A stretch of 64,000 nucleotides of DNA from Sulfolobales archaeon (GTDB taxonomy: Archaea; Thermoproteota; Thermoprotei_A; Sulfolobales; AG1): positions 192,001 through 256,000 of the forward strand of contig JAWBYA010000001.1 in NCBI GenBank assembly GCA_038867615.1. Direction: 5' to 3'. This document shows, one piece after another, positions 40,771-60,145 of the stretch (position 1 is the stretch's first letter; every line of letters begins with the position of its first letter). The translations under genes were made by a program, and so were the position numbers. Below the pieces are notes generated by a model. The model was not told where the DNA came from and did no database searches. It worked only from the letters and a program-made list of their open reading frames with translations.

Positions 40771-40907
40771 AACTCTGACACTATACGTAATATATAAGAA
40801 TTGCTATAGAAAATCTATAACAATAAGGAAAAAATATTAACCCATAGTTATAATACAGCTGGGACTAAGTTGAGTCAGCAATATAGACCTGATCTCTACG
40901 TTGTTCT

Positions 40908-41123
40908 ATTTCAATTCTATAGTAGATCGACCCTGCGAAGTCATGGTTTGCTTTTAGCCTAACGACATTGGGGTTTCCATCTAGGTTCGAGAGATCATTC
41001 CCTGGGCGGCTTGAAGCTCTGCTCCCATCACCGTCCAGGGTCAGTATTGAGATCAACTCATCACCAGAAACAATTCCGATCAAAGCTTATAAATACCTCC
41101 CACGAGTATCAATAAGAAAACAG
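40908..41123 (-). repeat. family B unit B1: promoter, conserved body, single CRISPR-like repeat (40908-40931)
   Basis: Aligns with 47136-47355 and with the interrupted 43408-43970; ends in GTCGATCTACTATAGAATTGAAAT on the minus strand. Confidence 0.85.
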
Positions 41124-41146
41124 TTCTTCTCATAATTTTATAGTGT

Positions 41147-42151
41147 TTAGAGCTTCTCTTTCCTAAGATCTATCATGTCCTCTACATTCTCGCCAGTGCC
41201 TATGAGGGTTATTGGGACGCCTATCCTCTCCTCTAGATCTTCGATGAATCTGCGTGCTTCTTGGGGTAGTTTTCCCCATTCCCTAACCCCTCTAGCTTCT
41301 CTATACAGGGCGTCTAGCTTTGTTATAGCTACCTGGGTTGCTGAGTTGATTCTCACGGCTTTTCTGGCAAGTTCTATGTTGAAGGGTGCTACTCTTCTGA
41401 GCCTTCCTGTTACGGTTCCTCTTTCGATTAGGCCTAGTTTTTCAGCATCTTCGGGGCTTATCTCGCCCTCGAGAGGCCCTTCACCTACTCTTGTTACGAA
41501 TGATTTGAACACCACTATAACCTGGTCAACATGTTTTGGCCCAGCACCTATTTCTGACAAGATCCCTGCTGCTGATGTGTCTCTCGATGTTACGTAGGGG
41601 TAGGTTCCGTGGTAGAGGCTTAGAAAGAGTCCCTGTGTCCCTTCGACCAGGATCTCTTCTCCCCTCTCGATCATGTCGAGGATCTCTGGGGAGCTGTCGC
41701 AGATGAGATCCTCGATCTCTTTGAACTCCCATGCAAGCTTAAGCCTTCTAAGAACCCTCTCAGCCGTGGCAGCCCCTACCCCCTGGAACGTGGATCCTAT
41801 GCTTCTGAGCTTTTCATCAAGAGCCTCCATCTCGACGTGTCTCTTCTCTATAACGCCTGAGTATCTATCGACACATATCCTGCCCTGGGTTCTTGTCTCC
41901 TCGATCTCTTTTAAGAGGGTATCGATCCTTATGAGGGAGCCTCTGGCTATGAATAGCCTTATATCTTTATTTATGAATGTCGAGGGGACTAGCCTTAGCT
42001 TCCAAACCCTACCTCTATAGGTTAGAGTGTGTCCAGCATTAACACTCCCGGTCCTGATACTAGCACTATATCCTCCCCTGAGTCCTAGGTAGCCGGCTAC
42101 CTTACCCTTACCCTCGTCTCCGAAGAATCCTCCACATACTATTGTTATCAT
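41147..42151 (-). CDS. purA: adenylosuccinate synthetase (short archaeal type)
   Basis: GDEGKGK, NAGHT, EGTQG, YPYVTS, TRVG and GTVTGRLRR motifs. Confidence 0.97.
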   Translation of the reverse strand: MITIVCGGFFGDEGKGKVAGYLGLRGGYSASIRTGSVNAGHTLTYRGRVWKLRLVPSTFINKDIRLFIARGSLIRIDTLLKEIEETRTQGRICVDRYSGVIEKRHVEMEALDEKLRSIGSTFQGVGAATAERVLRRLKLAWEFKEIEDLICDSSPEILDMIERGEEILVEGTQGLFLSLYHGTYPYVTSRDTSAAGILSEIGAGPKHVDQVIVVFKSFVTRVGEGPLEGEISPEDAEKLGLIERGTVTGRLRRVAPFNIELARKAVRINSATQVAITKLDALYREARGVREWGKLPQEARRFIEDLEERIGVPITLIGTGENVEDMIDLRKEKL

Positions 42152-42152
42152 T

Positions 42153-43259
42153 CTACCCCAGCCTCACGCCGTGATCCCTATGATAGCTCTCTCTATGAGC
42201 CCCTGGTGCTAGGATAACAAACCTAGCCCTCTCCCACAGCTCCTCTATATTTCTAGCACCGACATATGAGAAGCCCGATCTCAGCCCGCTCACTATGTTT
42301 GAGACAACCTCGGCGACAACTCCTCTATATGGTACGAGCATCTCTATACCCTCTGCAGCATATGACGATAGATCCTCGGGATCCTGGTTATCTATAGATA
42401 CTCTCTGAAGGTATGAGGAATTACTAGCCATACCTCTATACAGCTTATACTTTCTACCATCGATCATAACGGGTTTTCCAGGAGCCTCCTCGGTTCCTGC
42501 TAATAGATAGCCTATCATCGCGCTCGAAGCCCCAGCCGCCAGTGCTTTAACAATATCGCCCGAGGATCTCATACCACCATCCGCTATGATCGGGACTCCG
42601 TAGGGTTTCGCAACGCTATATACATTCATGATCGCTGTGAGCTGGGGAACACCTACACCGGCAACGATTCTCGTGATACAGACATGCCCCGGACCTATAC
42701 CCACCTTGATCCCGTCTACATCTAGCTCGATAAGATCCCTTGCAGCCTCTCCTGTAGCTATGTTACCCACAACGATATCCACGGAATCGCTGATAACCTT
42801 CTTAATATTCCTCACAGCCTCGAAAACTGGTTTTGAATGAGCATGGGCGACATCAATCACTATAGCATCAACACCAGATCTATAGAGCCTCTCAGCCCTC
42901 TCCAGATAATCCCCCCTCACACCAACTGCAGCTGCTACGGCGAGCCTTCCATCAAGGCCTAGCGATTCGTTGCTCGATAATCCTACGGGTTGTTCTTTAA
43001 CCCTCTTCACCTCTTCCACCTGTCTATCGATCGGCATGAATCTATGTATAACACCTATCCCACCCATCCTGGCCATAGCTATAGCCATTCTCGATTCCGT
43101 CACACTATCCATTGCTGCACTTACTAACGGTATATTGATCCATATTCTTCTAGAGAACCTTGTTCTCAGCGACACCTCTGACCTTGAGTTAAGATCCGAG
43201 TAGCTAGGAACTAGAAGGACATCATCTAGGGAGAGACCATAGCCTATTACTTTGCCCAG
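42153..43259 (-). CDS. IMPDH/GMP reductase family enzyme without CBS domains, probably GMP reductase
   Basis: DDVLLVP (upstream of the listed ORF start), SAAMD, GIGPGHVCITR, ADGG and YRGMAS; no RY dyad in the flap. Confidence 0.85.
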   Translation of the reverse strand: MGKVIGYGLSLDDVLLVPSYSDLNSRSEVSLRTRFSRRIWINIPLVSAAMDSVTESRMAIAMARMGGIGVIHRFMPIDRQVEEVKRVKEQPVGLSSNESLGLDGRLAVAAAVGVRGDYLERAERLYRSGVDAIVIDVAHAHSKPVFEAVRNIKKVISDSVDIVVGNIATGEAARDLIELDVDGIKVGIGPGHVCITRIVAGVGVPQLTAIMNVYSVAKPYGVPIIADGGMRSSGDIVKALAAGASSAMIGYLLAGTEEAPGKPVMIDGRKYKLYRGMASNSSYLQRVSIDNQDPEDLSSYAAEGIEMLVPYRGVVAEVVSNIVSGLRSGFSYVGARNIEELWERARFVILAPGAHRESYHRDHGVRLG

Positions 43260-43407
43260 ATATCCCTAACAATCCTGTGTTTAAGGGGTATATAAATACT
43301 AGGCGAAAAAGATCTTTTTATTACCATGAAAAAGTAAAAACCTATCCCTTTCTATTAATAGCTACTTGGTATGCTATCTCAGCGGCTTTCTCGCCAGAGA
43401 GAAGCAT

Positions 43408-43970
43408 CTTTCAATTCTATAGTAGATCGACCCTGTGGGTTTGTTGATGACTGTTGAGCCCAGCTGCATAGGGCTTCTATCTATTGTGAGATCATTCCCT
43501 AGATGGGGTTCGGGCTTCATAGCGGTTGATTTTGCTTGATATCAACCGCTCAGCCCTTGGTTTCATAGGCCTCAGGGCCCCTTTCATTGGAGCCCTTATC
43601 ACTGGCCTCCACCCGTTCGGGGTGACCCCAACCCACAGCTTCCCTTCATTGCATTGCTCTGGTTCATTGCTGTGGGGAACCCCTGCATTTTGGATTTTAT
43701 TTAACCCGCCCCTCGGGTCTCTATCTCTATCCTCATTGTTGGGCGGCATCCCAGTGAAATATAAGAGCTTATATAAGGTTACATTACTGCAGAACTACGA
43801 GCTTAATATCAACCCCTATAAACCACCATGAAGCTCGAAGCAGCTGGCTACGGCTTGGAGCTATGCTCCCATCACCACCTAGAGTCAATATTGAGATCAA
43901 CTCATCACCAGAAACAATTTTAATCAGATATTATAAATCTTTACATAGGATATCAGTAAGAAAAACAGCC
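43408..43970 (-). repeat. family B unit B2, interrupted by element A2; repeat at 43408-43431
   Basis: Contains GTCGATCTACTATAGAATTGAAAG; the two halves rejoin at a GG when 43505-43853 is removed. Confidence 0.85.
43505..43853 (-). mobile_element. family A element, copy A2 (nested in B2)
   Basis: Full-length match to A1; GG at both ends and no longer target duplication. Confidence 0.88.
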
Positions 43971-44130
43971 TGTTATAATTATGTCGCCCTTCGAGTACTC
44001 CTTGATCATGTTGTGAAGGCTTCTGCGAAGATTCTCTTACTAGCTATGTCTTTCACTTCTAAGCCTTTCTTAGGGTATTTATAAGTATTCTATAGATAAT
44101 CTATTTATGGGTTCCTTTTTTAAAGCGGGA

Positions 44131-45384
44131 TCATACGGGTTTCATCAGGATCTTCTCTTCGTTGAGTAGGTAGGATGATGCTATGATCATTATTATTGAG
44201 AATACTGCTAGGGCTAGTAGGTGGGTCATAGATCCTGTTATATCTCCTAGGGAGAAGAGTCTTATGGCTAGCACTGAGTGTGTATATGGAAGGATCATCA
44301 TTGGTATGGATACGCTTGTGGGCAGCCTATCTATATCTACGAATAATGCTGAGAAGAAGATAGATGATGCTATAACCGTTATTATTGATGAGGCTATCTG
44401 GGCAGACCTTACAGTGGCGCTCCTAACTATGATTGGTAGTGAGAGTGCTAGTGTTGAGAGTATTGTTAGGTAGACTACGAAGGCGCTTAGAAGCACTAGC
44501 TGTGGATCGTAGACGCTTGTGCCAAGAGCTCCGTGGGCTAGGATCTGGAGGAAGATCACCACGGCTATGATCTCTATTGCTGCTGCGAATAACCCCACAA
44601 GAGAGCTTGAGAATGCTTTAGCTAGTATGAGATCCCGTCTCCTCAGCGGGGCCATTAGAAGCACCTCAAGGGTTCTCCTCTCCTTCTCACCAAGGATCGA
44701 GTCGACAACATATGTGGTTGCAGGTGTTGCTACAAATATTAGTGAGAATGCTAGTAGTCTTGCAACATAGATTCTCAAGGCTTGCTCGTATCCGATCTCC
44801 TCTCCAGTTGGTGTTATGTATGTTGTTAGAAGAACAACCACAGGATCCCTTATACTCTCGGGGTTAGCATTGATCTCTGCCCTCGATGCTAGGAGCCCGA
44901 TCTTGAGGTTTGATACGTGGGTTGAGAGTTCCTGTAGGACTGAATATAGATCTGAGAGAAGCCTGTCAGCCCTAGGAGACCCAGGGATCCTCTGGATCTC
45001 TACATATGCTCTATCAACTAGAGAGGATAGGTTTTTCGAGAACCCCTGGGGTATGATTAGCACAGCATCTATTGGGGAGCTAGTCTCACCAATATATACT
45101 GAGTAGCCCTTAGAAACCATGGATCTCGATATATATTCAGATATATCCGAAGACTCTATAGTGATATTCCCTATAGAGCCTGTCGAGCTATCCCTGTTAA
45201 CTATAAGCAGGGCTCCCTGCTCGAGGGATTGTAGATAGGTGCTCATAAAGCCTAGGAGGGGTAGCATGATGAGGGGCAGGGCTCCCAGGGCTGCTAGGGT
45301 TCTATAATCCCTCACAAGCTCTAGGAACTCCTTCCATATTAGGGGTCTCATGCCCATAGATCTATCCCCCAGATCTTGATACAA
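44131..45384 (-). CDS. ABC-2 permease (NatB-like)
   Basis: KEFLELVRD, extracellular loop, GEKERRTLEVLLMAP. Confidence 0.88.
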   Translation of the reverse strand: MYQDLGDRSMGMRPLIWKEFLELVRDYRTLAALGALPLIMLPLLGFMSTYLQSLEQGALLIVNRDSSTGSIGNITIESSDISEYISRSMVSKGYSVYIGETSSPIDAVLIIPQGFSKNLSSLVDRAYVEIQRIPGSPRADRLLSDLYSVLQELSTHVSNLKIGLLASRAEINANPESIRDPVVVLLTTYITPTGEEIGYEQALRIYVARLLAFSLIFVATPATTYVVDSILGEKERRTLEVLLMAPLRRRDLILAKAFSSSLVGLFAAAIEIIAVVIFLQILAHGALGTSVYDPQLVLLSAFVVYLTILSTLALSLPIIVRSATVRSAQIASSIITVIASSIFFSALFVDIDRLPTSVSIPMMILPYTHSVLAIRLFSLGDITGSMTHLLALAVFSIIMIIASSYLLNEEKILMKPV

Positions 45385-46108
45385 GGCTTACGAAAGACTC
45401 CTCGAGATTCTTAGCACCCGTGATCCTCTTTATCTCCTCCACACTACCCTCACCAACGATGACACCGTTGTTTATTAAGGCAACCCTATCGCATAGATAT
45501 TCCACTTCAAACATGTTATGGCTTGAAAGGATAACAGAGGATCCGGTGGGTTTTGAGTACTCTTTAATAGCCTCTCTAACCTGTAGCGATGAGAATACAT
45601 CAAGGCCTGATGTTGGCTCGTCTAGAATTGCTAGGCGTGGCTCTGACATGAATACCCTTGCTATTAGCAACCTCCTCCTCATCCCCTTACTATATGTTCC
45701 AGCCCTCCTCCTTAGGTCGTTTATAGAGAGTCCGGAGATCCTGATCCCTATATCTAGGGCCTTCTCAACATCGAGGCCATAGAGCTCTGCGAAGAATCTC
45801 AGATACTCTAGACCACTTAGCCTCGAATACACATCAGCCTCTTCCGGGAGATAGCTTATCCTTCTCCTAATACTCGGCAGATCCCTATTCTCCCTCAGAT
45901 CTACGCCCAAGATCCTCACACTACCCGAGGTGGGTTTAGCAAGGGTTGCCGCTATCCTTAGCGTTGTTGTCTTCCCAGCACCGTTAGGCCCTACGAGACA
46001 ATAGATCTCTCCAGGCGCTACCCTAAAGCTAATACCCCTCAGAACCTCCCTAGATCCATAGCTCTTCCTGACATCGATAAACTCAACCACATTCTCCACA
46101 ACAGGCAC
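45362..46108 (-). CDS. ABC ATP-binding protein (NatA-like)
   Basis: GPNGAGKT, YSKGM, LDEPTSGLD and SSHNM motifs. Confidence 0.93.
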   Translation of the reverse strand: MPVVENVVEFIDVRKSYGSREVLRGISFRVAPGEIYCLVGPNGAGKTTTLRIAATLAKPTSGSVRILGVDLRENRDLPSIRRRISYLPEEADVYSRLSGLEYLRFFAELYGLDVEKALDIGIRISGLSINDLRRRAGTYSKGMRRRLLIARVFMSEPRLAILDEPTSGLDVFSSLQVREAIKEYSKPTGSSVILSSHNMFEVEYLCDRVALINNGVIVGEGSVEEIKRITGAKNLEESFVSLVSRSGG

Positions 46109-46168
46109 TCATGATTAGTAATACATGCGATAATATATAGGGTTCCTCCATATAATATTGGTGATCCT

Positions 46169-46432
46169 TTGGGAGAGGTGGAGGAACCGCCTGAGGATCT
46201 CATAGAGGGTTTGAAGAGCATTATAAAGATAGTTAAGGAGTCTAGGAAGCATATTGGAGAGGATAGATGGAGCACGATCGAAGAGGATCTAGTGATGCTG
46301 ATATCAGATATACTCCACGCATGGATGGAGAAGAACAACATAGATCCCGACAAAGCCACCGTGAGAATCGAGGTTGAGGAGGAGGAAATAGAGGTAGAGA
46401 TCCCGAGAAGAATCACAAGGTTTAGAATGTAA
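46169..46432 (+). CDS. small acidic hypothetical protein
   Basis: 87-aa ORF with GGTGA SD-like site and TATA upstream; host-like codon usage. Confidence 0.65.
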   Translation: MGEVEEPPEDLIEGLKSIIKIVKESRKHIGEDRWSTIEEDLVMLISDILHAWMEKNNIDPDKATVRIEVEEEEIEVEIPRRITRFRM

Positions 46433-46465
46433 CAGCTAGTATACCAAGAATCGCGGGAGCCGTGG

Positions 46466-46969
46466 ATGGCGTGTCGATTACCTAGAGAGCCAGGTGTATA
46501 TATTATCATCATAAGAGTTGGCAGAGATACTAGTATAACTACACACGGTGGAAAGAGATTCACTATCCCATCTGGCGTGTACCTCTATATAGGGTCAGCA
46601 ATGGGTAAGGGAGGTATATATAGAAGGGTTGCAAGACATATAAACAAACCCAGATCTCTCTTCTGGCATATTGATTATCTATTGCATCAACAATCCACAG
46701 AAATCCTGGGGATCCTTTACAAGACGCATGAGGATCGAGAGGATTACGAGGCAAGACTAGCCCTAGCCTTTAAAGAGATCTTCACAGGAATCCCTGGTTT
46801 TGGGTGTAGCGACAAACCCGAGGACTATTCCCACCTATACCTATGCGGCTACTCCGAGGATGAATGTCTAGAGAGGATAAATGAGACGGGCATAGCTGAT
46901 CTAACTTATTGCCGTATAAACGATCTTGCAGGCGTCTCGAACATATCCCACAGATCCCGATCCCTATAG
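46466..46969 (+). CDS. GIY-YIG (Uri superfamily, DUF123) nuclease-like protein
   Basis: GVY..., YLYIGSA, RVARH, WHIDYL and GFGCSD motifs. Confidence 0.9.
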   Translation: MACRLPREPGVYIIIIRVGRDTSITTHGGKRFTIPSGVYLYIGSAMGKGGIYRRVARHINKPRSLFWHIDYLLHQQSTEILGILYKTHEDREDYEARLALAFKEIFTGIPGFGCSDKPEDYSHLYLCGYSEDECLERINETGIADLTYCRINDLAGVSNISHRSRSL

Positions 46970-47135
46970 ATCTGTGATGCAGAGACACGCCCAGACTTGA
47001 TATAAGGGAGCATAAAATAACAACAATCGATACCCAGAGACAAACCATATCGAGGAGCGGTTTGTCTAAAAACATCAGATCCTTTTGGATATTGCTATAC
47101 CAACCCAGCTTGCTACTAGTCCAAACAATAATCCC

Positions 47136-47355
47136 TTTTCAATTCTATAGTAGATCGATCCCATGGGTTTATGGGCTGCCGTCGAGCCAAACAGCACTTG
47201 ACTCCCATCTAGGTTTAAGGGATCATCCCCCGGATGGCTCGGAGCATTGCTCCCATCACCACCCAGAATCAACATGGAGATCAACTCATCACCAAAAACA
47301 ATTCCAACCATAAGATTATAAATCTTTCCCACGAATATTAAAAAGAAAACAGCCC
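47136..47355 (-). repeat. family B unit B3; repeat at 47136-47159
   Basis: ATCGATCTACTATAGAATTGAAAA; body aligns with B1, B2 and 21609-21661. Confidence 0.85.
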
Positions 47356-47483
47356 AGAGCCTATCCCAAGAAAAGCTCCTATACCGCCGGCTAATCCTGT
47401 TAATACTCTGTCTCGGGTGCTTCTCACAAGCTCCTTGGATGCGATAGCACGCTACCCCTGCTTTAAGTCTTTTAGGTATATTT

Positions 47484-48641
47484 TTATAGTAACCATTTGG
47501 CTCCGTGTCTCAGTAGGTGTTTTGATATAACTAGCTTCAGGATCTCGTTTGTCCCCTCGCCTATTTCGAGGAGTTTTGAGTCTCTATAGATCCTCTCGAC
47601 GTTGCTTTCCTTACTATACCCATAGCCCCCCATGAGTCTTACAGCCTCGTTAGCAACCCTCACACTGGCTTGGGATGAGTGGAGCTTTGTGACGGCAGCC
47701 ATTACTGGGAAGTCCTCTGATCCTTTTCTATAGAGCTCTGCAGCCCTGTATACAAGGGATCTTGAGCTCTCTATAAGTGTATAGAGATCTGCTAGTGTGA
47801 ACTGGATCGCCTGGAACTCTATAACAGGCTTTTCGAAAGCTATCCTCTGTGTTAGGAATGAGTATGCCTCCTCATAGGCAGCCTCGGCTAACCCTACTCC
47901 TAGAGCGCTTATTGCAACCCTGCCCACGTTGAGAGCATCCATAGCTACTTTAAAGCCTTCCCGGGGAGGTGCTATGATATCGTCATCTCCTGCTCTGCAC
48001 TCATCTATAACAACCTCAGCTGTTCCCGTACCTCTAAAGCCCATAACCTCTATGGGGTTTGTCTTTATACAGCTGCTTCTCTTTAGCAGAACCGCGGCTA
48101 TATTCCTATGCCTCTCACTCCTAGGCCCGGTTCTCCCGAACACTATGAAGTAGTCAGCATAAAGCCCCTGGGTTATCCAGGTTTTTGTACCCTTGACAAC
48201 CCACTCTCCCCCCTGTCTCTCTATGCTTGTCTCTATGTTGGCGGCATCGCTCCCACAGCAAGGCTCGCTGAGGGCGAAGGATCCTATAGCATCGCCGGAA
48301 GCTAGTTTTGGGATAACCTCCTCAGCAACCCTCTTGGAAGCATTGCTGACAAGGATATGGGTTACAAGTGTTCCCTGAACCTCAGATATAAGGGCAACAG
48401 AGCCGCTGAACCTAGCAAGCTCTTCCAAGACCACAGAGACTCCTAGGAGGTCTAGACCAGCTCCCCCAAGATCTTCTGGGACGTTTGGCGCCAGTATCCC
48501 CATCCTACCCATCTCCCTGACAAGCTCCCTCGGGTACCAGTTCTCGGCATCTATCTTTCTAGCGAGTGGGACGACATGTTTTGAGGCAAACTCTCTAACG
48601 CTCTTCCTAAGAATCAATAGATCTTCCTCCACGCAATCCAC
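47484..48641 (-). CDS. acyl-CoA dehydrogenase
   Basis: FALSEPCCGSD, GTKTWITQG, MGGYGY and IGEGTNEI motifs. Confidence 0.95.
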   Translation of the reverse strand: MDCVEEDLLILRKSVREFASKHVVPLARKIDAENWYPRELVREMGRMGILAPNVPEDLGGAGLDLLGVSVVLEELARFSGSVALISEVQGTLVTHILVSNASKRVAEEVIPKLASGDAIGSFALSEPCCGSDAANIETSIERQGGEWVVKGTKTWITQGLYADYFIVFGRTGPRSERHRNIAAVLLKRSSCIKTNPIEVMGFRGTGTAEVVIDECRAGDDDIIAPPREGFKVAMDALNVGRVAISALGVGLAEAAYEEAYSFLTQRIAFEKPVIEFQAIQFTLADLYTLIESSRSLVYRAAELYRKGSEDFPVMAAVTKLHSSQASVRVANEAVRLMGGYGYSKESNVERIYRDSKLLEIGEGTNEILKLVISKHLLRHGAKWLL

Positions 48642-56024: not shown

Positions 56025-56981
56025 ATGTATAAAACCATAATTGTGGGGATCAGTATGATCTGTTCTAAGGCTCCTGGGAAGATAATCCTGTTTGGAGAGC
56101 ACTTTGTAGTGAAAGGGGTTCCGGGTATTGGCATGGCTGTCAGCTCCTATGCAAAGGCATGTGTTGAGGAAAGCGATAAGAACACGGTTTTATCGAAACA
56201 GCTGGGCCTGGTTTATGACGAGGCTGAGGGGGTAGGTTTTGGGGGTGGCTTTGAAGTTATATTCAAGCTCATCGCCTCTATGGGTTGCTCTAAGAGGGTG
56301 AGGGCTTATATAGATTCCTCTATATTTATGGGCTCTGGGATGGGTTCTTCAGCAGCATCCTCGGTTGCTCTGATCCATGCTCTCATGAGGCTCTGCGGTT
56401 TAGACCCCTCTAAGGAGGTTGTGTCTAGGATAGCCTTTGAGGCTGAGAAGGCTGTCCACGGAAAACCTAGCGGTATTGATAATACCCTAGCAACCTATGG
56501 GGGGCTACTTTACTACAGATCCGGGGTTTTTGAGAGGATAGATATCAAATGGCCCGAGGAGTATTCGTTGCTTGTTGTGAACACAGGGATCCATAGAGAG
56601 ACAGGGGTTGTGGTTAAAGACGTTCTAAACCTCTATGAGAGGAGGAGAGGGGTTTTAGAACATATATACAAGGCTGCGGAAGAGCTTGTAAACCAAGCCC
56701 TAGCAATGCTGAAGAAAGGGGATTTCGAGAACCTGGGGGAGTTGATGAATATAAACCAAGGATTACTATATACTGTGAATGTTTCATGCCCGAAATGTGA
56801 GGAGATAATCTGGCTCCTCAGGAGAAACAAAGCCCTAGGGGTCAAGCTAAGCGGTGCTGGGAGGGGAGGGATCATAATAGCCCTATATAGAAAGAAAGAT
56901 CTAGAGGGTGTGAGGCAGCTACTAAAAGAAGAGAGCCTAGTAGTAAGCCTCGACGAGCAAGGGGTTCTTTCAATTTCGTAG
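56025..56981 (+). CDS. mvk: mevalonate kinase
   Basis: APGKIILFGEH, GMGSSAA, HGKPSGID and KLSGAGRGG motifs. Confidence 0.95.
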   Translation: MYKTIIVGISMICSKAPGKIILFGEHFVVKGVPGIGMAVSSYAKACVEESDKNTVLSKQLGLVYDEAEGVGFGGGFEVIFKLIASMGCSKRVRAYIDSSIFMGSGMGSSAASSVALIHALMRLCGLDPSKEVVSRIAFEAEKAVHGKPSGIDNTLATYGGLLYYRSGVFERIDIKWPEEYSLLVVNTGIHRETGVVVKDVLNLYERRRGVLEHIYKAAEELVNQALAMLKKGDFENLGELMNINQGLLYTVNVSCPKCEEIIWLLRRNKALGVKLSGAGRGGIIIALYRKKDLEGVRQLLKEESLVVSLDEQGVLSIS

Positions 56982-56990
56982 TAAATCGGC
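56967..56990 (-). repeat. degenerate CRISPR-like repeat overlapping the mvk stop codon
   Basis: GCCGATTTACTACGAAATTGAAAG (minus strand) is 19/24 identical to the B2 repeat. Confidence 0.65.
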
Positions 56991-57163
56991 GAAACAGTCC
57001 TCGGTGTATAAATAATCGGCTGGGTTTGGGACTTATAAAAACAAAAGATCCCTTGGGTCGTTTTAGAAGATTCTGTGGAAGAAGAGATAAAGATACTAAG
57101 GCTATTGGGTTTTGCCATCATTAAAACTAAGGATCAAATACGAAGTTCCGCATAATATAGTAG

Positions 57164-60145
57164 TTAAGTCGATCTACTAAAGAATTGGGAGAGATCGCGG
57201 TAGAGCTCTACAAGCATCTCCTCCACATCCTCTCTCCTCAAGCTCGGTTGCAGGGCTTTTAACACCATGGTATCTAGCTCGATCCTTTTTTCCTGGGGCG
57301 GGAAGTATTGTTCCGGCAGTCTTTTTAGCTCGGAGTGTTTGAACATATCGAAGATCTCTGAGAGAGTGTTGATCTTACCTTCTGGAAGTGATGTGATATC
57401 AAGGACTGGGAGGAGTTTCCAGTGGGTTATTTTAAGACTGCTCCACGCACCCTCGGTCTCCTCCCTGTGGGCTATGATGCTCATAATCCCCCATGTGGTG
57501 TTAAGCCATAGGCATAGCGCTTTGAGCTTTCTATCATCGTTGCCTGTTTTGAGTCTAACGGCATAGAATATGTTTGAGAGTACAGGTTTTGTAACATAGA
57601 TCGCTGTTACATGGGCTGTGTTGAGCCTTATTCTCTCTGGGACGAGGAGGCTGCTTGCAAACCTCTCAAATATTCTTCTCGCTTTCCCATCCTTCGGAAG
57701 GATCCGGGCGTTAGGATCGGTCTGTAACCGGGTTCTCAACTCTTCTCCCCCACCATATAGGGCTGGCAGAGATCCTGGCGCCTCTGCAGCTCTTCTAAAG
57801 CTATCGTGGAATTGATGCCTGTCAATCCCGATCACCGCTATCTCTCCAAGCCTCTTAACCGGGATCCTTATCTCTCTAGCTCCAAGCCTTATACTACCCT
57901 CTAGCAGCTCTAACACATAGTTTGAGAGCCGCGGGTTTGTGAATGCTAATAGCTTTCCCCAGTTATCCAGGTGCTTTAGAAGCAATCGCCTCGGGATCGT
58001 ATATACAATGCCACAAGATCTTCCAGCCTCTACATTGCTGCCTAGGCTGCTGCTCCCTAGCGTTATATCTATCTCAGCGGCTTTCCCACACCTATCTATG
58101 ATTTCATGTGCCAGCCATACTCCCTCAAGTGCTGTTTTAGGTTTTCTGACCAGGTTTGCTATGCATGTTCTCTCATCCTCAACATGCTTATCAACCCTCC
58201 TTGCGATCACGAGGCACTCGCTCAGGTCTGTAGATTCGCTAAAACCATAGCCTTCTTCGGGATCGTTGCTAACAATAACATATTCTAGGTGGAATCTCGA
58301 TGCTAAGAACGATCGTGCGAGGAACCAGCTTATCCCTGACAAGAGATTCCTGGGTAGAACAAACGCTATCCTACCCCCCTCTTTTACCAGCTCCCCAGCA
58401 ATGTATAGGAAGAGGAGCCCTTCACCAGCCTGTCCAATCTCTAGGAAGGTTTTTACACCTTCCCCGCTGAGTGAGGTTTCTAGTTCTTTCAGGAAAGCCT
58501 TTCCCTCGCTAGTCTCGGATAACATGTATCTCACATATTCTCTAAGTCTCTTGTAGGATCTGAGGAGCTTCTCCCTAGCATGCTTATCCACTATAAAGCC
58601 GAAGAGCCCTGATTCTTTCCTGCCGCCTCTTCCAGTTGCTCTGGTGAAGGGAGGGTTCATTATGATTAGGTCAAACCTTTCTGGAAGATCTATTATTTCT
58701 TCCTTCCTAGAGGCAGAGATCCTGATTATACCTCTGCTCCTCGGAGGGTTTGCAAGAATCCTCTGCACTAGATCCAGGCTTCCCATAGATACAGATCCGT
58801 TAGGGCCTATTCCAAGCGGTGCTGTGTAGATATTCATGCTTTGTGGAGAAGCTTCGGGATTATGGAGGGCAAGGATCGTGGTTGTTATATATGTTGCGAA
58901 TCTAAGGGAATCCAACCCCCAGAGGGTTTTCTCCAAAACAGTCCTGTGGAAGCCCTCAACATCGACTTCCAACCCTTCTTTCAAGCGATCTCTGGTATAG
59001 AGGTATAGAAGACCATCGTAAGAGGCTGAGAGAAGAGTTCCCGAGCCGCATGCTAGATCGGCTATTCTGAAATTATCAAGAGAGCTGAGGCTCTGCCACG
59101 CCTGGTTTGGGGTTGTAAGGGCTAGTCTGGCAAGCAGGTACGATGAAGGTATGCTTGTAAAATATGTTGCTAGGTTCTTCCTAACAGCCCAGCTCCCTAC
59201 TATTGTATGGTATATCTTGCCCGCGAAATCGCGTCTCAACAAGGTCTTGTTGCTTGCTATGCTGCTTGCAAAGCCGATCAGATCCATGATCGCTTGTTGA
59301 GCGTCTATAGGGAGTTTTTCAACGATCTCCTTGGCAATGCTGAAGATCGGTTGGTTGTTTATTTTAACAATACTATCGAAGGCTTTCTCAAGGGCTGGTA
59401 GGCCGTTTCTCCCTCCTACCAGGCTTTCCAGGGGTTTGAGGCCGTGTTTGGCTCTTATACTCTCATAGAGTATGGCGCTTAGGAGGATAGCTAGGGCTGC
59501 TTTACCATAGATCATTTCCTTGATATCCTCTACCTCTCCTATGGAGATGCCGTAGAGTTTATGGAAAACATTGTAGAGCTCTCTACATATAGATAGATCT
59601 CTATCCACAGAGCCTAGGGTTTTGATTAGCCGGTTGATAAGCTTCTCTATCTCCTCCTCGGCTTTTCTAATCATTTCCTCCAAAACCAGGTGCTGGATCG
59701 CTTGGTCTATGCTATCCCTTAGAAGGGGTACATCGACCCTAAGCCACCCTTGCGTGAGCAGCTCTCGCGGAGATTCCTTAGATCTCTTCTCCAAGAAGCG
59801 CGATAGATTTCTCGTCACATCTTCTCCGGGTATGAAGAACCTAGCCCTCAATACAGATCTTTCCAAGATCTCCTCGATCTCATCCTCCGCAACTTCCTCA
59901 GGAAAAGCCTGTCTATCATACCAGATAGCTACGGCTATGTCGCAAAGCCCGCTCTCAAGCCTCTCTATCGCATTTCTTTCAGCAACACGAGCTTCGTAGG
60001 ATCCTTCGAGGGCTATTCTGAAACCCTTATACAGAAGAACTATGCCTGTAGAACCATCTATATATATCTCAACCCTCTCTTTAAAACCATGCCTCCCAAG
60101 CAGCCGGGCTAAGGTCCTGCTAACCCTACCTTCATCGATACCCAA
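57164..60145 (-). CDS. type IIG-like fused restriction-modification protein / large N6-adenine methylase
   Basis: DLACGSG, NPPFTR, C-terminal TRD-like region and an N-terminal segment with IALEGS. Confidence 0.85.
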   Translation of the reverse strand: MGIDEGRVSRTLARLLGRHGFKERVEIYIDGSTGIVLLYKGFRIALEGSYEARVAERNAIERLESGLCDIAVAIWYDRQAFPEEVAEDEIEEILERSVLRARFFIPGEDVTRNLSRFLEKRSKESPRELLTQGWLRVDVPLLRDSIDQAIQHLVLEEMIRKAEEEIEKLINRLIKTLGSVDRDLSICRELYNVFHKLYGISIGEVEDIKEMIYGKAALAILLSAILYESIRAKHGLKPLESLVGGRNGLPALEKAFDSIVKINNQPIFSIAKEIVEKLPIDAQQAIMDLIGFASSIASNKTLLRRDFAGKIYHTIVGSWAVRKNLATYFTSIPSSYLLARLALTTPNQAWQSLSSLDNFRIADLACGSGTLLSASYDGLLYLYTRDRLKEGLEVDVEGFHRTVLEKTLWGLDSLRFATYITTTILALHNPEASPQSMNIYTAPLGIGPNGSVSMGSLDLVQRILANPPRSRGIIRISASRKEEIIDLPERFDLIIMNPPFTRATGRGGRKESGLFGFIVDKHAREKLLRSYKRLREYVRYMLSETSEGKAFLKELETSLSGEGVKTFLEIGQAGEGLLFLYIAGELVKEGGRIAFVLPRNLLSGISWFLARSFLASRFHLEYVIVSNDPEEGYGFSESTDLSECLVIARRVDKHVEDERTCIANLVRKPKTALEGVWLAHEIIDRCGKAAEIDITLGSSSLGSNVEAGRSCGIVYTIPRRLLLKHLDNWGKLLAFTNPRLSNYVLELLEGSIRLGAREIRIPVKRLGEIAVIGIDRHQFHDSFRRAAEAPGSLPALYGGGEELRTRLQTDPNARILPKDGKARRIFERFASSLLVPERIRLNTAHVTAIYVTKPVLSNIFYAVRLKTGNDDRKLKALCLWLNTTWGIMSIIAHREETEGAWSSLKITHWKLLPVLDITSLPEGKINTLSEIFDMFKHSELKRLPEQYFPPQEKRIELDTMVLKALQPSLRREDVEEMLVELYRDLSQFFSRST
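57168..57191 (+). repeat. degenerate CRISPR-like repeat overlapping the last codons of the methylase gene
   Basis: GTCGATCTACTAAAGAATTGGGAG; its first 20 nt are 19/20 identical to the B repeat. Confidence 0.7.

Follow-up and report, generated by a model that had tools for sequence, protein, structure and literature searches.

A 64,000-nt stretch of the genome of a Sulfolobales archaeon (the window; C1:192001-256000 of a 28-contig, 2.22-Mb assembly that is 94.4% complete) contains three dispersed units, each ending in one solitary repeat of the type found in CRISPR arrays. These units are probably MITEs (miniature transposable elements with inverted repeats) of a tnpB-only insertion sequence (IS) of the IS200/IS605 family, which has full copies in the same genome, with the single CRISPR repeat replacing the tail of the transposon guide RNA. 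The genome under study is referred to as G000 and the two congeneric genomes compared with it as G002 and G003.

Structure of the units

On the minus strand, each unit starts with (GG)CTGTTTT, carries TTTATAA about 30 nt further on, continues for about 150 nt that can be aligned between the units and ends in (G/A)TCGATCTACTATAGAATTGAAA(G/A/T). Past the repeat end the three units have no common sequence, the homology stopping within 1 base of that end in the alignment. The exact 19-mer ATCTACTATAGAATTGAAA is found at positions 40909-40927, 43409-43427 and 47137-47155, all on the minus strand, followed by one further site with 3 mismatches at 57172-57190 on the plus strand. Only 0.04 matches were expected by chance, and four matches were reached in none of 100 shuffles. 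Both the search and the alignment confirm the three minus-strand units ending in the same 24-nt repeat that had been described in the initial annotation of this DNA.

Unit 1 (40908..41123, minus strand) measures 216 bp from the IS left end CTGTTTTC to the repeat end and is a repeat-ended copy without the IS tip (nhmmer match C1:233132-232902, profile positions 6-233). Its TATA box TTTATAA at 41087..41093 comes from the left-end promoter of the IS, where the same motif precedes the tnpB frame, and its role as a promoter is putative. The segment homologous to omega-RNA lies at approximately 40932..41040, with 72-92% identity over 39-111 nt when unit copies are compared with two IS copies by BLAST, and the repeat GTCGATCTACTATAGAATTGAAAT occupies 40908..40931. 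Unit 3 (47136..47352, minus strand, 217 bp; nhmmer C1:239362-239131, profile positions 5-232) has the same layout, with the TATA box at 47316..47322, the omega-RNA-homologous segment at approximately 47160..47267 (nhmmer profile and BLAST) and the repeat ATCGATCTACTATAGAATTGAAAA at 47136..47159. Unit 2 (43408..43968, minus strand) is split in two halves, matching at C1:235972-235850 (profile positions 11-132) and C1:235506-235406 (profile positions 129-229), with a TATA box at 43931..43937 and the repeat GTCGATCTACTATAGAATTGAAAG at 43408..43431. The TATA boxes of units 2 and 3 were read directly from the sequence, and the three repeats were identified by reading and by motif search. The interruption of unit 2 is real as annotated, and the interrupter turns out to be a separate MITE of about 345 bp from a second lineage (43507..43849, ends approximate, minus strand), of which 14 further near-full-length copies exist with 81-89% identity.

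Units 1 and 3 are 76.0% identical over 217 nt. The 5' half of unit 2 shares 80.8% with unit 3 over 120 nt and 79.8% with unit 1 over 114 nt, and its 3' half 74.0% with unit 1 over 96 nt and 71.3% with unit 3 over 101 nt.

Origin of the unit body

A profile made from seven copies gave 77 matches in G000 (nhmmer). Sorted by their 3' end, 34 finish in a hairpin right end, 2 in the repeat followed by an 11-nt IS tip and 12 in the repeat without this tip, the latter including the second half of unit 2 and a CRISPR mini-array described below; 15 have other ends and 14 are truncated. With two partial copies counted in, G000 holds 13 repeat-ended units. Most matches lack the repeat at their end and run on for about 80 nt through two hairpins to the tip ...ATCCAGGGACAAACGG. 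The right-end tip ...GGGACAAACGG closes the IS, and in the units the last ~80 nt, i.e. the two hairpins plus the tip, are replaced by the 24-nt CRISPR repeat. The window units therefore do not share the right-end terminus ...ATCCAGGGACAAACGG that a MITE of this IS would be expected to have, since they end in the repeat instead. The 11-nt tip is kept after the repeat in sister copies at C5:93961 in G000 and at L017, L050, L052 and L055 in G002.

Two IS copies, 89% identical to each other over 1.5 kb, begin with the same bases as the units. Compared with both, the unit start shows 87-95% identity over 21-24 nt, the shared left end expected of a MITE. The reading frame of the IS encodes TnpB, with 66.7 bits for TIGR01766 (cut-off 32) and 47.3 bits for PF07282. 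Two of the five tnpB zinc-ribbon matches lie directly upstream of a segment homologous to positions ~98-205 of the unit profile, and only this part of the region behind tnpB is kept in the units, which is less than a complete omega-RNA scaffold. As is usual for MITEs, the units are short (~216 bp), have no coding capacity and are dispersed among the 77 matches. A hairpin is conserved in 18 copies, with some two-sided changes (alifold). Based on these homologies, each unit consists of the left end of the IS, with the TATA box in front of tnpB, and the RNA region that follows tnpB. In elements of this family the latter region encodes the guide RNA, and the TnpB of Sulfolobales uses a guide RNA derived from the right end, according to the parts of the literature consulted here.

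The initial annotation had also proposed mobile leader-repeat units. Mobility stands, the units being polymorphic between strains, whereas the leader does not: BLAST of the units against the genome matched only array repeats and no array leader, and no similarity of the unit body was found to the leader of any of the loci on C1, C11 and C27 or of the mini-array. Since the body shows homology to the left end of the IS and to the region behind tnpB and has no such similarity, it is not a CRISPR leader. The genome and relative comparison that had been suggested as a check thus yielded 77 family matches, empty sites in relatives and identity to the arrays in the repeat, not in the leader.

In the full IS copies of G000 at C1:781-2282 and C2:203162-204655, the tnpB frame is open through the right end into the flank, so that the C-terminus of TnpB would depend on the insertion site.

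The CRISPR repeat

Among 10 full-length copies in G000, the mean pairwise identity is 0.854 for the 24-nt repeat, 0.643 for the body and about 0.23-0.25 for both flanks. None of the 176 body windows of 24 nt is as conserved as the repeat, the best reaching 0.802, in agreement with the earlier remark that the terminal segment is better conserved than the body. An array of 122 repeats (121 spacers) lies at C1:626880-634757, and its repeat agrees with the unit repeat in the last 21 of 24 nt. The unit 24-mer is found exactly in a mini-array of two repeats with its own leader (C1:487880-487965) and as the repeat of a long array in the congener G003, from which 96 spacers were extracted. As these matches indicate, and as had been supposed, the terminal 24 nt are a genuine CRISPR repeat of the host lineage. 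It agrees with the S. solfataricus CD repeat, as printed in the section of PMC4041471 consulted, at 19 of 24 positions, the last 14 included. A further array, on C11, has 17 repeats of another type.

The cas genes all lie outside the window: cas1 at C1:638737, cas7/csa2 at C1:615983 and C11:18109, and two cas6 genes (PF10040) at C1:283809 and C11:23733. The Cas6 model PF01881 has no match in the genome, although this model also misses the S. acidocaldarius control, and the Cas6 model TIGR01877 stays below its cut-off in the genome. The statement that there is no array and there are no cas genes is therefore correct for the window and does not extend to the genome, which has arrays, cas1, cas7 and two cas6 genes. 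As cas6 and an array with this repeat are present, the genomic findings that had been named in advance as speaking against the idea of solitary repeats did not occur.

The array type with the unit repeat has about 97 repeats in G003 (C15:251884-258132) and two repeats plus a leader in G000 (C1:487600-487965). Within the leader of the G000 mini-array, two degenerate repeat copies are present.

Insertion sites and loss of host DNA

Alignments with G003 break exactly at the ends of the window units, and G003 has 321 bp (unit 3), 707 bp (unit 2) and 603 bp (unit 1) in their place. In G002, unit 3 is present and the sequence is intact at the sites of units 1 and 2. The sequences of the relatives at these sites are open genes, namely for a PspC-domain membrane protein (unit 3), Thi4 (unit 2) and a TrmB-like winged-helix protein (unit 1). 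The G003 Thi4 protein scores 230 bits with TIGR00292 (cut-off 148) and the G003 PspC-domain protein 38.4 bits with PF04024. Three genes are thus truncated, and in each case the repeat end borders host DNA whose counterpart in the relatives is 0.3-0.7 kb farther along. The units do stand downstream of genes, as was initially noted, but this position is incidental, each one sitting where part of a gene was lost.

After unit 1, the first 40 nt behind the repeat (40868..40907, minus strand) are host DNA from the start of the truncated TrmB-like gene, which lies on the other strand, and align with G003 sequence about 600 bp away from the left junction there; they would be the putative guide part of a Cas6-cut RNA. 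A 3' remnant of the Thi4 (thiazole synthase) gene adjoins the repeat of unit 2 at approximately 43330..43407 on the minus strand, with a 5' remnant at ~43969-44075. Likewise, a 3' remnant of the PspC-domain membrane-protein gene follows the repeat of unit 3 at approximately 47075..47135 on the minus strand, with a 5' remnant at ~47353-47450. The Thi4 gene at 43330-44075 is destroyed in G000 and intact in G002 and G003, in a comparison of this locus.

The left junctions of the window units are purine-rich (GGG^, AGG^, GAA^), like the normal targets of the family. A hairpin-type copy at C1:537431-537784 is a clean insertion compared with G003, with the empty site GAGAGGG^GTTC and no target duplication. 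The repeat-plus-tip copies L050 and L052 of G002 and the tip-less copy L068 are also simple insertions compared with G000. At the sites of the window units, the relatives have 0.3-0.7 kb of host DNA and no clean empty site. The joining of the repeat end to DNA that was originally further downstream is also observed at C1:535916, L021 of G003 (5.9 kb), L067/L072 (864 bp), L073 and L049. Moreover, the same left junction is found with differing right flanks for L068 and L016 (68 bp), L075 and G000 (~330 bp), and C1:143.6k in G000 and G003, so that the deletions are anchored at the right end. L015, L017, L057 and the left side of L021 were excluded from the clean junctions because of nested MITEs and large indels. 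The units are accordingly best read, from sequence comparison, as footprints of insertion plus deletion in genes. At C1:143.6k, a hairpin-type copy in G003 shares its left junction with the repeat-type copy of G000, and the DNA next to its right end is located about 190 bp farther along in G000; deletions anchored at the right end may hence be typical of the transposon family as a whole.

The stretch C2:377850-377918 of G000 was considered as a decayed unit and rejected, being undisturbed host flank, i.e. an empty site. The region C1:274565-283161 of G000, between two inverted hairpin-type MITEs, is inverted compared with G003, which suggests MITE-mediated recombination. A distance of 650 bp separates one of these MITEs from a cas6 gene.

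Ancestral bases at the junctions

For 11 junctions, the three ancestral bases before the DNA that now touches the repeat were read, with registers set by eye and ancestry taken from single relatives. These are CCT for unit 3, TCT or TTC for unit 1 and GCA for unit 2; CTG or CTC for C1:535916, CCG or CCC for L021, CCA for L067 and TCT for L073; and CCT or CTA for L016, CCG for L068, CTA or TAT for L075 and CCA or TCC for L049. Eight of the 11 are CCN, TCN or CTN in every reading, two depend on the register and one falls outside this set. According to the consulted part of a review, type I-A interference in S. islandicus is permitted by CCN, TCN and CTN and not by GGN, GAN and TTN, and the same source gives CCN and TCN as adaptation motifs of type I-A subfamilies in Sulfolobales. 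The ancestral triplets thus resemble a type I-A protospacer adjacent motif (PAM), as far as their sequence goes.

The genome-wide rate of CCN, TCN and CTN is 0.214, or 0.325 if either of two registers counts, giving probabilities of 3.9e-4 and 7.4e-3, respectively, for at least 8 of 11. Of the seven junctions read after the idea arose, six are in the set (P = 5.5e-4 and 5.9e-3). The sample is small, L016 and L068 share one locus, and the PAM set is that of other Sulfolobales and may not be that of this host. It was taken from a review of other Sulfolobales because no protospacers were matched: megablast and blastn of both long arrays against a phage collection gave no match, and the 233 spacers (121 + 96 + 16) had no protospacer in G000 and the compared loci.

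Distribution of repeat-ended copies

A search of 30 relatives with unit 3 showed copies reaching into the repeat only in the congeners G002 and G003, among the matches listed. The exact two-motif pattern was found in three stretches from two records among 185,579 species genomes (L061 of a Desulfurococcaceae archaeon, and L062-L063 of a metagenome-assembled genome of a Sulfolobales archaeon) and in 14 metagenome contigs, many of them identical to G000, with 0 matches in viral contigs. The orthologue of unit 3 in G002 is identical at 192 of 197 positions in the body and at all 24 in the repeat. The flanks themselves vary between 0.72 and 0.98 in 50-nt windows, so that conservation above them is weak evidence here. 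A poorly resolved tree of 54 copies and 200 columns has 9 changes of end type, compared with 16.4 in shuffles. It is compatible with one origin of the repeat-ended type.

Proposed mechanism

The initial annotation had regarded the units as solitary-repeat cassettes. What holds of this is the single genuine repeat with a TATA box about 190 nt upstream in all three units; the RNA upstream of the repeat has to be reinterpreted as the guide-RNA scaffold of a transposon. In the mechanism proposed here, the IS promoter, predicted from the TATA box alone, would transcribe the scaffold, the repeat and the flank, and Cas6 would cleave the transcript 8 nt ahead of the end of the repeat. The product, consisting of a CRISPR RNA (crRNA) 5' tag and flanking chromosomal sequence, might then enter type I-A or type III complexes. 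In this way the transposon would trade the TnpB-specific 3' end of its guide RNA for the host CRISPR handle. Transcription of the units, processing of the repeat and loading onto Cas complexes are all inferred. Loading might proceed as for ncRNA60 of S. solfataricus, an RNA with a single repeat-like motif that, in the account given in the consulted part of PMC4041471, is cut by Cas6-3 and found in the CSM (type III) complex; the crRNAs of S. solfataricus have an 8-nt tag according to the literature consulted in part. The 0, 0 and 27 RNA reads obtained from three metatranscriptome runs and one contig run are neutral on unit transcription. The reads at repeats join repeat to repeat over ~39-40 nt, so they come from real arrays.

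Bacterial TnpB guide RNAs have been described, in the reports consulted in part, as directing the cutting of vacant sites, by which the transposon is retained. A comparable homing function is conceivable for the units, although we consider it rather improbable. A class 1 effector would replace TnpB, and the unit crRNA would cut the PAM-bearing ancestral allele, which would then be converted by recombination. The repeat would hold the PAM position in the unit-bearing allele, and a functional type I-A PAM (CCN, TCN or CTN) would be present in the ancestral one. During exchange of chromosomal DNA, which is typical of Sulfolobales, this would amount to a gene drive. As a variant carrying the same reserve, the PAM-linked junctions might be made by Cas4-Cas1-Cas2, which would take a chromosomal end trimmed at the PAM and join it to the solitary repeat on its spacer side. 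If either holds, the repeat-anchored deletions of 0.07-5.9 kb would be a footprint of CRISPR proteins on the host chromosome at transposon-borne repeats.

Several observations weigh against a functional guide-RNA element. No Y1 TnpA transposase (PF01797) was found in G000, which is 94.4% complete. The unit RNA folds only modestly better than shuffled sequences (z = -1.91), and a TC variant lengthens the repeat hairpin by 2 bp (alifold), so the repeat may be kept as the right end of the element. Among the full-length copies, TTTATAA with at most 1 mismatch is kept in only 6 of the 8 without a tip and 1 of the 2 with a tip. Decay or interruption affects several copies, e.g. unit 2 and its counterpart at C2:202559 of G002, and copies differ by 20-35%, which fits old and partly dead elements. 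The guide would be in sense to its flank and match its own locus only, with the repeat at the position of the PAM or tag mismatch, so that no target is evident in the same genome. Finally, the DNA next to the right end of the hairpin-type copy of G003 at C1:143.6k has AGT or AAG before it in G000, outside the PAM-like set, which argues against CRISPR involvement.

A normal IS right end, e.g. at C1:537431-537450, has CCA before the tip GGGACAAACGG. A crRNA made by a copy with repeat and tip would consequently have an 11-nt seed in common with all right ends of the hairpin type, beside CCN.

Alternative explanations

The main rival of the favoured reading is an inert chimeric MITE subfamily. It would have arisen by one recombination between a MITE of the IS and a CRISPR locus, spread by the own machinery of the family and now be decaying, with the repeat kept as hairpin and cleavage site of the right end in transposition and not for any use by Cas proteins. 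This is a real possibility, albeit a clearly less probable one. It accounts for the repeat-plus-tip copies and the one tip-less copy that are simple insertions relative to a strain with the empty site, and for the many copies that are interrupted, truncated or without a good TATA box. With the longer repeat hairpin of the TC variant, 3-4 nt remain up to the end of the element, which resembles the normal right end in geometry, and a single origin of the repeat-ended type is compatible with the tree. What an inert element leaves unexplained is that 8 of 11 junctions follow CCN, TCN or CTN while the targets at the left end are purine-rich (GGG, AGG, GAG), and that the repeat remains identical to a genuine array repeat, without the drift expected of a mere hairpin.

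Another explanation might be that the units are RNA decoys, similar to the RNA anti-CRISPRs of viruses. Their promoter-driven repeats, present in many copies on the mobile element, would then occupy Cas6 or Cas7 and weaken CRISPR immunity directed at the IS family or at its carriers. The arrangement described in the consulted part of PMC10651486, i.e. a promoter with a solitary repeat on a mobile element, away from cas genes and matching the host type, is indeed the one found here, and 13 copies are present in G000. Nevertheless, we regard a decoy as unlikely: the pattern has 0 matches on viral contigs, no array spacer matches G000 or the compared loci, so that no targeting of the IS family is seen, and a decoy needs neither a ~150-nt scaffold nor a defined junction with the flank.

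Remnants of ordinary arrays or mobile leader-repeat units are a still poorer fit and very improbable. Orphan remnants of a leader plus repeat do occur in the genome, at C1:429134, C1:487756, C1:606099 and C7:43773, and these account for its other solitary repeats. The unit body, on the other hand, resembles no array leader in G000 and has its homologues in the left end of the IS and the region behind tnpB, and each unit has one repeat, with no second repeat within 50-85 bp as an array or mini-array would have. Least credible of all is a C/D-box guide RNA gene, for which UGAUGA- and CUGA-like motifs and an Rfam sR14 match at 47237-47296 could be cited, since this match falls far short of the threshold (17.4 bits, gathering score 38, E = 0.34) and the sequence that contains the motifs is derived from a transposon. 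At gathering thresholds, Rfam found only two tRNAs, and within 40800-47500 there are two sub-threshold matches at chance level.

Relation to known systems

The units share the left end, the promoter and the RNA region behind tnpB with tnpB elements of the IS200/IS605 family that have an omega-RNA or right-end RNA (reRNA), such as ISDra2 and SisTnpB1 of S. islandicus. As in an omega-RNA, the variable part of the unit RNA would be the DNA flanking the right end, and the hairpin-type relatives insert without target duplication. Unlike these elements, the units have no tnpB, and the link of ~80 nt from scaffold to guide is replaced by a class 1 repeat of the Cas6 type.

The solitary repeat units of viruses and plasmids described as RNA anti-CRISPRs (PMC10651486, consulted in part) likewise have a single repeat behind a promoter, which is putative in the units studied here, lie away from cas genes, are mobile and match the host type. 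Here, in contrast, the carrier is a chromosomal multi-copy MITE with a fused guide-RNA scaffold of ~150 nt, there are 0 matches on viral contigs, and inhibition is putative. ncRNA60 (PMC4041471, consulted in part) is similar in being a non-CRISPR transcript with one repeat-like motif, and by analogy provides the mechanism proposed for the units. It differs in being a single locus beside cas6 with a degenerate repeat, whereas the units form a transposon family scattered over the genome, and their repeat is exact. The repeat of the units also occurs in orphan leader-repeat remnants and mini-arrays; the units themselves show no homology to a leader and have a single repeat each.

Evolutionary links from TnpB to type V CRISPR systems, as well as repeat-like regulatory RNAs at cas genes, also combine transposon guide RNA and CRISPR repeat elements. 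Those are class 2 or located at cas loci, while here a class 1 repeat stands on a TnpB-type RNA far from cas genes. To our knowledge, TnpB guide RNAs and CRISPR RNAs have been thought to be related solely via class 2 (Cas12) evolution. No publication on a MITE or a transposon guide RNA whose end is a repeat of the Cas6 type was found in a literature search that excluded supplements such as the repeat-unit lists of PMC10651486. We judge that the units combine two known kinds of element, a MITE and a solitary repeat, in an unusual chimera.

On the favoured reading, a mobile element with many copies carries a gene for a TnpB-type guide RNA that has become fused to a class 1 repeat of the Cas6 type and persists in several strains. 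If processed as proposed, the units would be natural single-repeat guide cassettes that aim type I-A or type III complexes at chromosomal sequence. This would offer a transposon a direct route to borrow host immunity for its own retention, and would give rise to crRNAs directed at the host itself, to loss of genes and to rearrangement of the chromosome. Even if the units are inert, transposons can spread solitary CRISPR repeats, which matters for array prediction and the interpretation of orphan repeats. The PAM-like rule at the junctions makes an involvement of CRISPR testable.

Other features

The second-lineage MITE inside unit 2 (43507-43849) has parents near C1:11133-12704 and C1:50262-51744, and its 3' half follows the tnpB matches at C1:12309 and C1:51361. 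In G002, a full 1.56-kb IS of the second tnpB lineage at C2:202559 splits an orthologous repeat-ended unit at a nearby body position. Based on these two insertions, the unit body may be a preferred target of that element.

A segment of about 225 bp at 56967-57191 of the window lies between two outward-facing, degenerate repeat-like 21-mers with 3-4 mismatches to the CRISPR repeat. It is conserved in G003 (L058), has no relation to the transposon body and is probably the other family mentioned in the initial annotation. Finally, a tRNA match at 451-550 on the plus strand extends over 100 nt for a model of 71 positions (64.2 bits) and, being longer than the model, probably contains an intron.

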